A stretch of 61,305 nt of DNA, the filler included, from Porpidia crustulata (taxonomy: Eukaryota): the NCBI GenBank assembly GCA_964255105.1. It is 9 parts of 9 records of this genome, joined end to end, with 100 filler letters (N's around TTAATTAATTAA, not from the genome) between each part and the next. Parts side by side here need not be neighbours in the genome. Positions count along the whole stretch, not along the records: positions 54,593 to 61,305 come from CAXUWE010001472.1; 8 more parts are not named here. One strand, written 5' to 3'. The position numbers were made by a program, and so were the translations under genes. Below are positions 60,464 to 60,974 of the stretch, piece by piece; position 1 is the first letter of the stretch; every line of letters begins with the position of its first letter. The notes under the pieces are model-generated. The model had not been told where the DNA came from, made no database searches, and worked only from the letters and a program-made list of their open reading frames with translations.

Positions 60464-60974
60464 CTAGTACGAGTCTGGGTAGGCTACCGCGTCATCCGCA
60501 GCGTCCCTCTTATAAGAGTCTGGATACGCTACCGCATCGTCGGCTGCGTCTCTCTTGTAAGAGTCTGGATAAGCTACCGCATTGTCGGCAGCATCTCTCT
60601 TGTAGGAGTCTGGGTAAGCAACCGCATCGTCCGCAGCGTCTCTTTTATAGGAGTCCGGATATGCTACAGCATCATCTGCAGCGTCTCTCTTGTATGATTC
60701 AGGGTAGGCAACAGCATACTCAGCGGAAACTCTTATGTGCGAATAAGGATAGGCCACGGCCTCGTCGGCAGCATCTCTCTTGTACGAGTCTCGATAAGCA
60801 ACAGCATCATCCGCAGCGTCTCTCTTGTAAGATTCAGGGTAGGCTACAGCATCATCGTCTGTAACAGTTAGGTGGGGATTAGGTGAATCTGAGACTGACG
60901 AAGGACTTACTGCTCATTGGCGCAGTTGCGACCACAGCAGCGAGCGAGGCCACAAGGAAAGTTGTCAGTTGCAT
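60464..60974 (-). CDS. Kex2-processed repeat protein (KEP) / candidate RiPP precursor, 152 aa, 2 exons
   Basis: Exon 1 60974-60911 (MQLTTFLVASLAAVVATAPMS), intron 60910-60859 (GTAAGT...CTAAC...CAG), exon 2 60858-60464 with nine 15-aa/45-bp repeats of consensus DAADDAVAYPDSYKR, ending at TAG. Confidence 0.93.

Follow-up and report, generated by a model that had tools for sequence, protein, structure and literature searches.

Fungal peptides whose making depends on UstYa proteins, the ustiloxins and phomopsins among them, bind tubulin potently, and to our knowledge only a handful of UstYa-dependent peptide cores have been tied to a structure. Here, we analyse a gene of Porpidia crustulata (assembly GCA_964255105.1) that lies near the end of a stretch of 61,305 nucleotides, hereafter the window, in which nine parts from nine records are joined end to end with filler between them; parts standing side by side need not be neighbours in the genome, and positions 54593-61305, where the gene lies, come from CAXUWE010001472.1. 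The closest described systems are the clusters for peptides made on the ribosome and modified after translation (RiPPs) whose precursors are repeat proteins processed by Kex2 (KEPs). A survey that catalogued 7,878 KEPs reports that DUF3328 (UstYa) genes peak right beside KEP genes, at a mean distance of 3.09 genes, and that ~22% of the KEPs have such neighbours (PMC7329392). It also reports that Tyr is enriched in the cores of DUF3328-linked KEPs, that pheromone KEPs are almost never DUF3328-linked, and that an ustiloxin-type pathway is recognised by a signal peptide, Kex2-separated repeats and adjacent DUF3328 genes, with Tyr-rich cores being typical (PMC7329392). A survey of lichens describes UstY genes as widespread in Lecanoromycetes, counts 987 lichen RiPP clusters and 827 singleton clusters, notes that UstYa proteins also act in non-ribosomal and polyketide clusters and detected no repeated precursor (PMC12048977).

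Our favoured reading, to which we give a probability of about 70%, is that the gene encodes a multi-core precursor, putatively secreted and processed by Kex2, from which a UstYa-dependent (dikaritin-type) RiPP is made; the gene is probably the template for an undescribed compound. The reading follows from the ustiloxin-type features just listed, because a signal-peptide-like N-terminus and Kex2-separated repeats are found in the window gene and DUF3328 genes stand beside the precursor in its relatives.

Structure of the gene and of its repeats

The gene is on the minus strand and has two exons.

60974-60911, minus strand: exon 1, 64 nt (21 codons plus 1 base), with the ATG at 60974 and the signal-peptide-like N-terminus
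60910-60859, minus strand: intron, 52 nt, phase 1, with GTAAGT donor, CTAAC branch site and TTACAG acceptor
60858-60464, minus strand: exon 2, a 130-codon frame with nine tandem 45-nt units (spacer, core, KR) and a TAG stop at 60466-60464
60975-61305, minus strand: 5' flank and promoter region of the gene, 331 bp to the window edge

Ten candidate introns with GT..AG ends, a length of 40-120 nt and a single open frame left after splicing were compared, and the 52-nt candidate alone unites a consensus donor, a branch site and an intact first repeat. Its splice product is identical, letter for letter, to the protein proposed by an earlier reading made from this DNA alone (hereafter the sequence-only reading), which had suggested a canonical 52-nt intron and left the strand unstated. 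Contigs from four sequencing runs, of DNA or of unrecorded kind, were aligned to positions 59000-61305. One of them, a 324-nt contig from run X2, covers 60642-60858 and 60911-61015 and joins 60858 straight to 60911, skipping exactly 52 bases with CT..AC ends on the plus strand; on its shorter side the joint is backed by 105 letters. Its source is a relative, ~92-94% alike to the window. Since the kind of run X2 is unrecorded, the contig is either cDNA or an intron-less allele; in both cases it confirms the exon junction, and it says nothing on expression in Porpidia crustulata.

The N-terminus has a 14-residue uncharged hydrophobic core, with a best 10-residue Kyte-Doolittle mean of 2.76, followed by small residues, as a heuristic for signal peptides expects. 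A hydrophobic N-terminus with an intron directly after it was also found in four of the eight related loci examined (L001, L007, L015 and L017, from the metagenome contigs described below), the script having given no model for the other four (L002, L005, L012 and L016), and the hydrophobic N-terminus is common to the proteins of the family. The intron and the signal-peptide-like N-terminus of the sequence-only reading thus stand, and a spliced fungal gene for a putative secreted repeat protein is confirmed as real.

Exon 2 is a tandem array, for which Tandem Repeats Finder gives a period of 45, 8.8 copies, 76% matches and no indels (60463-60856). It translates into nine units with seven KR sites, as had been proposed, and the consensus unit is DAADDAVAYPDSY-KR; with three or more near-identical repeats and dibasic Kex2 sites, the product has the make-up of a KEP. 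The last unit of the window gene, like that of several related loci, ends in Tyr directly before the stop codon (TAG in the window), which fixes the C-terminus of the peptide that would be released.

An array of this kind could also be a 45-bp satellite open by chance in one frame, the more so as two frames are stop-free, the sense one and one antisense. The proportions of synonymous (pS) and nonsynonymous (pN) differences between units speak clearly on this point: overall the units differ almost exclusively at synonymous sites (pS of 0.77, pN of 0.09), pS is 0.79 and pN 0.08 among units 2-9, and they are 0.71 and 0.022 among the six intact units (2 and 5-9). In a six-frame control only the proposed frame is both stop-free and constrained (pN/pS of 0.12), whereas the frames that do not share third positions range from 2.2 to 14.5, the highest value belonging to the open antisense frame, a 134-aa plus-strand open reading frame (ORF). 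This low ratio in the proposed frame only implies that the units are old duplicates kept by selection on the peptide, as the synonymous pattern of the repeats had first suggested. In addition, the upstream signal-peptide exon and its intron are conserved, and the peptide is kept across three fungal classes while the DNA and the spacer diverge. We therefore consider a satellite or chance frame refuted, by the frame constraint and by a peptide conserved across classes on diverged DNA, and leave it next to no probability.

A family of precursors with a conserved core

An earlier word-index protein search had given a single relative out of two candidates. Searching 1.84 billion representative sequences with phmmer (E<=1e-3) gave 45 matches, of which 21 were inspected and 13 scanned against Pfam. 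P0001 and fourteen of the 21 are short, have a hydrophobic N-terminus and carry repeats of the form [AE][IV]AYP[DE][SAG]Y-KR. The long matches (P0004, P0007, P0010, P0011 and P0017-P0021) were set aside as unrelated, being multi-domain or low-complexity proteins. The named members come from three classes of fungi:

Lecanoromycetes: Rusavskia elegans, Seirophora scorigena, Haloplaca sp. and Xylographa vitiligo
Eurotiomycetes: the lichen-forming Endocarpon pusillum (ERF73307.1)
Dothideomycetes: Byssothecium circinans and Bimuria novae-zelandiae

All are annotated as 'hypothetical protein', and several of their models are truncated, unspliced or fused, which means that public gene models miss or mangle the genes of this family. 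The family is unnamed, and its relatives are found mostly in lichen-forming fungi.

The core is strongly constrained. We built a profile from 96 distinct units of 26 sources, under a selection rule that forced Tyr at position -5 and Tyr or His at position -1, counted back from the end of the core; both Tyr residues are also invariant in the family alignment, so that each core holds two tyrosines. The other positions were free to vary. Ile or Val fills position -7 in all 96 units; Pro occupies position -4 in 94, Asp or Glu position -3 in 95, Ala position -6 in 90 and Ser position -2 in 84. Unit length (10-16 residues) is set by a variable acidic spacer on the N-terminal side of the core.

Two further observations concern the extent of the family and its turnover. 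A 95-aa protein (P0023) is a related-looking KEP with the core VAWPDY followed by KR or RR, i.e., with Trp for Tyr and one residue fewer, and may represent a sister family. Among the metagenome loci, L002, L003/L004, L010-L014 and L016 (precursor at ~10001 in each) have flanking genes that are 97-100% identical and carry 9, 10, 6 and 8 units, respectively; these differences in unit number between near-identical loci suggest either rapid gain and loss of units or the collapse of repeats in metagenome assembly.

A UstYa pair beside the precursor in divergent lineages

We scanned metagenome contigs with the family alignment and retrieved 19 loci with up to 10 kb on either side of the precursor. 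Five loci (171 ORFs >=100 aa) were scanned with Pfam, and all 19 were searched with tblastn. In 14 of the 19 loci, two divergently transcribed UstYa/DUF3328 genes stand as a pair 0.6-2.5 kb upstream of the precursor; among the loci with at least 2.8 kb of upstream flank, this is the case in 14 of 15, L018 being the exception. Both paralogues carry HxxHC motifs in L001, L002, L005, L007 and L015. The loci fall into five lineages, between which the cluster proteins are 40-70% identical; because one lineage accounts for nine loci that are nearly identical to one another, the independent observations of the pair are five, not fourteen. In each lineage the precursor is the gene nearest to the UstYa pair. 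The dikaritin-like architecture that the sequence-only reading had noticed has thus gained comparative support, in the form of homologous precursors that stand beside two UstYa genes together with an O-methyltransferase, a P450 and a hydrolase.

This linkage bears on the possibility that the gene encodes a mating pheromone precursor of the alpha-factor type, from which X-Ala spacers would be cut by a dipeptidyl aminopeptidase like Ste13. Like such a pheromone precursor, the protein does have KR sites, an N-terminus that resembles a signal peptide and an acidic spacer, here beginning with Asp-Ala. However, the X-Ala form is limited to the first dipeptide of the spacer DAADDA, and the family lacks the regular X-Ala/X-Pro spacer of such precursors. 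Moreover, between 98.6% and 100% of the catalogued pheromone KEPs are reported to have no DUF3328 neighbours (PMC7329392), unlike the family described here, and no mating-type gene was seen near the precursor in the ORF scans of the window. The irregular spacer and the UstYa linkage of the family make a pheromone very improbable.

Other genes recur around the precursor. An O-methyltransferase is present in 11 of the 19 loci, a class-I methyltransferase is recurrent, and a flavin oxidoreductase was found in two. Eleven loci carry an aromatic amino-acid lyase, for which we know of no role in a fungal RiPP pathway. In three lineages it was placed precisely (PAL/TAL/HAL family, E ~1e-130), at L002:11264-13138 (minus), L005:18218-20116 (plus) and L018:10839-12953 (plus). 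An aminotransferase lies beside the precursor in L001, and a public model of cf. Caloplaca sp. (P0163) fuses an aminotransferase domain to a P450. Locus L002 also holds a Tc1/mariner-type transposase (15889-17130, minus; DDE_3 and HTH_Tnp_Tc3_2) between its hydrolase and its Fung_rhodopsin gene.

This assortment of enzymes raises the possibility that the cluster makes a small molecule, e.g., from an aromatic amino acid through the lyase, the methyltransferases and the P450, and that the repeat protein is a linked passenger. The recurrence of the lyase, of two kinds of methyltransferase, of the P450 and of the flavin oxidoreductase fits such a cluster, and UstYa homologues do occur in clusters of other kinds (PMC12048977). 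Yet the window, L001 and L015 lack the lyase and still have the precursor, the hydrolase and the P450, and the five Pfam-scanned loci revealed no non-ribosomal peptide synthetase, polyketide synthase or terpene synthase. With no core synthase seen and with the precursor as the nearest neighbour of the UstYa pair, we regard a passenger role as improbable.

Genes beside the precursor in the window

Three genes on the downstream side of the precursor enter the comparison with the related loci.

59234-60176, plus strand: alpha/beta-hydrolase of ~295 aa (Abhydrolase_6, E 2.4e-9), with a predicted 55-nt intron at 59747-59801
57154-58647, minus strand (that of the precursor): cytochrome P450 of 497 aa in one exon (p450, E 1.3e-44), with the heme motif FGGGPRTCPG
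54544-55976, minus strand: multi-exon membrane protein with a Fung_rhodopsin domain, three exon pieces of which match PF20684

The hydrolase, convergent with the precursor (their stop codons are 288 bp apart), combines a hydrophobic segment at its N-terminus with the nucleophile motif HSYGG. Homologues with 36-46% identity lie near the precursor in 13 of the 19 loci, and in the other six the downstream flank is no longer than 2.2 kb; the immediately convergent arrangement of the window matches that of L017-L019. Homologues of the window P450 occur in seven of the 19 loci (35-60% identity), including L001 (56%), L015 (47%) and partial copies in L011, L012, L014 and L016 (56-60%). The Fung_rhodopsin family is represented in L001, L002, L005 and L018; direct similarity to the window protein is weak (one match, 32%, in L001), and orthology is not established. 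The order and orientation in the window, with the precursor followed by a hydrolase on the opposite strand and a P450 on the same strand, are those of lineage A. Beyond the Fung_rhodopsin gene lie a protein kinase and a phosphatidylinositol 4-kinase (PI4-kinase), and none of the related loci has an equivalent of the non-cluster neighbours on this side. Conservation thus extends to the cluster and not to synteny in general.

The link between precursor and P450 extends to two named genomes. In Rusavskia elegans, the P450 part of a model that fuses it to the precursor is 42% identical to the window P450 (P0003, KAL8754215.1), and in Seirophora scorigena the precursor and a P450 orthologue have consecutive locus tags on one contig of 22,159 bp. 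For the window P450 itself, 483 of 8,000 scored candidates are relatives at E<=1e-30, the best being 94% identical; of the 120 relatives listed, several are named only 'cytochrome P450', and wherever an organism is given it belongs to a lichen-forming genus of Lecanoromycetes, Arthoniomycetes or Dothideomycetes. This points to a lichen-forming fungus, or one closely related to such a fungus, as the source of the window. Among solved structures, exon 1 of the hydrolase had no match and the P450 had generic matches only. A Tyr-Tyr cross-link made by the P450 alone, comparable to that of the bacterial biarylitides and cittilins, was considered for a time and superseded once the UstYa pair had been seen in the related loci.

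Some features of the window are unconnected with the cluster. Sixteen runs of 44 N, arranged in pairs with a spacing of ~6.83 kb, add up to 704 N between 6736 and 54592 and resemble deliberate masking more than gaps in an assembly; the region of the Fung_rhodopsin gene is cut at its 3' end by one pair (54493-54592). Acyl-CoA dehydrogenase genes occur at 38221-39758 (plus), 21 kb from the precursor, and at the edge of L018 (13010-13624, minus); their joint occurrence is probably a coincidence.

A proposed route from precursor to product

The arrangement of genes in the related loci allows a pathway to be proposed for the precursor. The signal peptide would direct the protein into the endoplasmic reticulum, Kex2 would cleave it in the Golgi behind every KR, and the KR would then be stripped by a carboxypeptidase to leave units that end in Tyr. 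The two membrane-bound UstYa oxidases would cross-link the core [I/V]-A-Y-P-[D/E]-S-Y, most likely through an ether bond from Tyr to a beta-carbon, and the P450 and methyltransferases of the cluster may decorate the product. The invariant Ile or Val two residues before Tyr is a candidate partner in this bond and is compatible with a Tyr ether macrocycle. Trimming of the variable acidic spacer would complete the process, possibly by the conserved alpha/beta-hydrolase in the secretory pathway; its hydrophobic segment and HSYGG motif suggest that it could be the trimming enzyme.

A number of observations weigh against this reading of the gene. First, the upstream side of the precursor, outside the window, is the weakest link of the argument. 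Only 331 bp upstream of the ATG belong to the window (a contig from run X1, the probable source run, likewise ends at 61305), so that a UstYa pair placed as in the relatives would fall beyond the edge. Within the window, UstYa, tyrosinase and O-methyltransferase genes were found neither among 26 ORFs >=120 aa (27-61 kb) nor among 88 ORFs >=55 aa (50.4-61.3 kb), nor by tblastn with proteins of the related loci. Second, L018 has no UstYa gene within its 3.1 kb of upstream flank. Its precursor (3135-3717) is interrupted in two repeats by stop-containing stretches, which could be extra introns or signs of decay. Third, a tyrosinase, which the cyclisation of ustiloxins and phomopsins needs although it is not universal in the class, is missing from the 171 ORFs of the five scanned loci and from the window ORFs. 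Fourth, adjacency of UstYa genes is no proof that they act on the peptide, because such genes also belong to non-ribosomal and polyketide clusters. Fifth, unit 3 is degenerate, with KR changed to IR (it reads HIR) and the last Tyr to His. Finally, a search for RNA runs of Porpidia crustulata found none, and the contig of run X2 may stem from an intron-less allele rather than from cDNA.

Several of these points would suit a KEP whose peptides stay linear, i.e., acidic 10-13-mers ending in Tyr that serve as signals, metal binders or surface peptides, while the neighbouring enzymes belong to another pathway. The window without a UstYa gene and L018 are as such a protein would have them, and ~78% of the catalogued KEPs have no DUF3328 gene nearby (PMC7329392). 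Against it stand the UstYa pair beside the precursor in nearly all informative loci, across five divergent lineages and in surroundings that are otherwise unconserved, and the invariance of positions -7 (Ile or Val), -5 (Tyr) and -1 (Tyr), which fits residues engaged in a cross-link, even though only the first of them is independent of the selection rule. We consider linear peptides unlikely, if still worth keeping in mind. The sequence-only reading had offered two outcomes, a Tyr-crosslinked cyclic peptide and a linear signalling peptide; the first is favoured by the UstYa neighbours in the relatives, and the second has become the weaker.

If the precursor does feed a UstYa-dependent pathway, one may speculate further on its product. 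The family might make a new structural type of cyclic peptide, built by UstYa proteins around an inverted [Ile/Val]-Ala-Tyr triad with a C-terminal Tyr, formed with no tyrosinase and then hydroxylated and O-methylated; such a peptide would be a product conserved across three or more classes of lichen-forming fungi. We hold this only tentatively and would not be surprised to see it fail. Were it true, the compound would be a candidate for a signal in the symbiosis or for an antimitotic defence, and its gene would be the 'missing' repeat-type precursor of the dikaritin-like clusters of lichens. Our study provides an explicit precursor family, defined by an eight-residue core and a recurrent set of accessory genes, and this makes a defined experiment of expression and mass spectrometry possible.

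Comparison with known systems

Searches of the literature and of published catalogues placed the family relative to earlier work. The literature on dikaritins and on UstYa proteins in lichens held nothing closer than the lichen survey (PMC12048977), and the core motif does not occur in its supplements. Nor did the motif turn up in the supplements of Le Marquer 2019, which may hold no sequences, or in that of Umemura 2020, which is uninformative in this respect because its table lists accession numbers only. The protein ERF73307.1 is not among the five Endocarpon pusillum KEPs of Umemura Table S2, E. pusillum being the only catalogued genome that overlaps with the family. Core strings of six to seven letters occur in none of ~8.4 million full texts, although they may be listed in the catalogues of Nagano et al. 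2016 or Ding et al. 2016, and the listed matches of five-letter strings are all unrelated. The kind of system, a DUF3328-linked KEP, is thus already known, this core was not found in print, and the family brings in no new principle.

The precursor of asperipin-2a, AprA, has the core FYYTGY. Like the members of the family, it is built of Kex2 repeats whose cores each hold several aromatic residues; its cyclisation requires no tyrosinase. The asperipin-2a cluster, as described in the lichen survey (PMC12048977), differs in its single UstYa homologue, accompanied by a reductase and a transporter, where the related loci have two UstYa paralogues and another set of accessory genes. PhomA follows the same precursor logic and has a Pro within its core, whereas that core begins YVIP and its cluster is reported to have five DUF3328 genes (PMC7329392), with a tyrosinase in the phomopsin cluster.

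UstA, like the proteins of our family, combines a signal peptide with numerous repeats that have a Tyr core and are separated by KR, and the ustiloxin cluster shares two UstYa genes, a P450 and methyltransferases with the related loci (PMC7329392). The cores are different: YAIG or YVIG in UstA and [AE][IV]AYP[DE][SAG]Y here. The beta-branched residue follows Tyr in UstA, whereas it stands two positions before Tyr in the family, which has a second Tyr at the C-terminus. The Tyr-x-Ile of ustiloxins and phomopsins is, so to speak, mirrored in reverse by the Ile or Val two residues before Tyr. The ustiloxin cluster needs a tyrosinase; the scanned loci have none, and conserve instead the hydrolase, the Fung_rhodopsin protein and often the lyase.

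Among lichens, the nearest described system is Clan R1 (Pasinato & Singh 2025, PMC12048977), which also belongs to lichen-forming Lecanoromycetes and also has two UstY homologues with HxxHC and an O-methyltransferase. As reported there, it is restricted to Parmeliaceae and has a tyrosinase, an FGE-sulfatase and an O-methyltransferase between its two signature genes (PMC12048977). That survey detected no repeated precursor, whereas the family described here combines two UstYa paralogues with an explicit repeat precursor and with accessory genes of its own.

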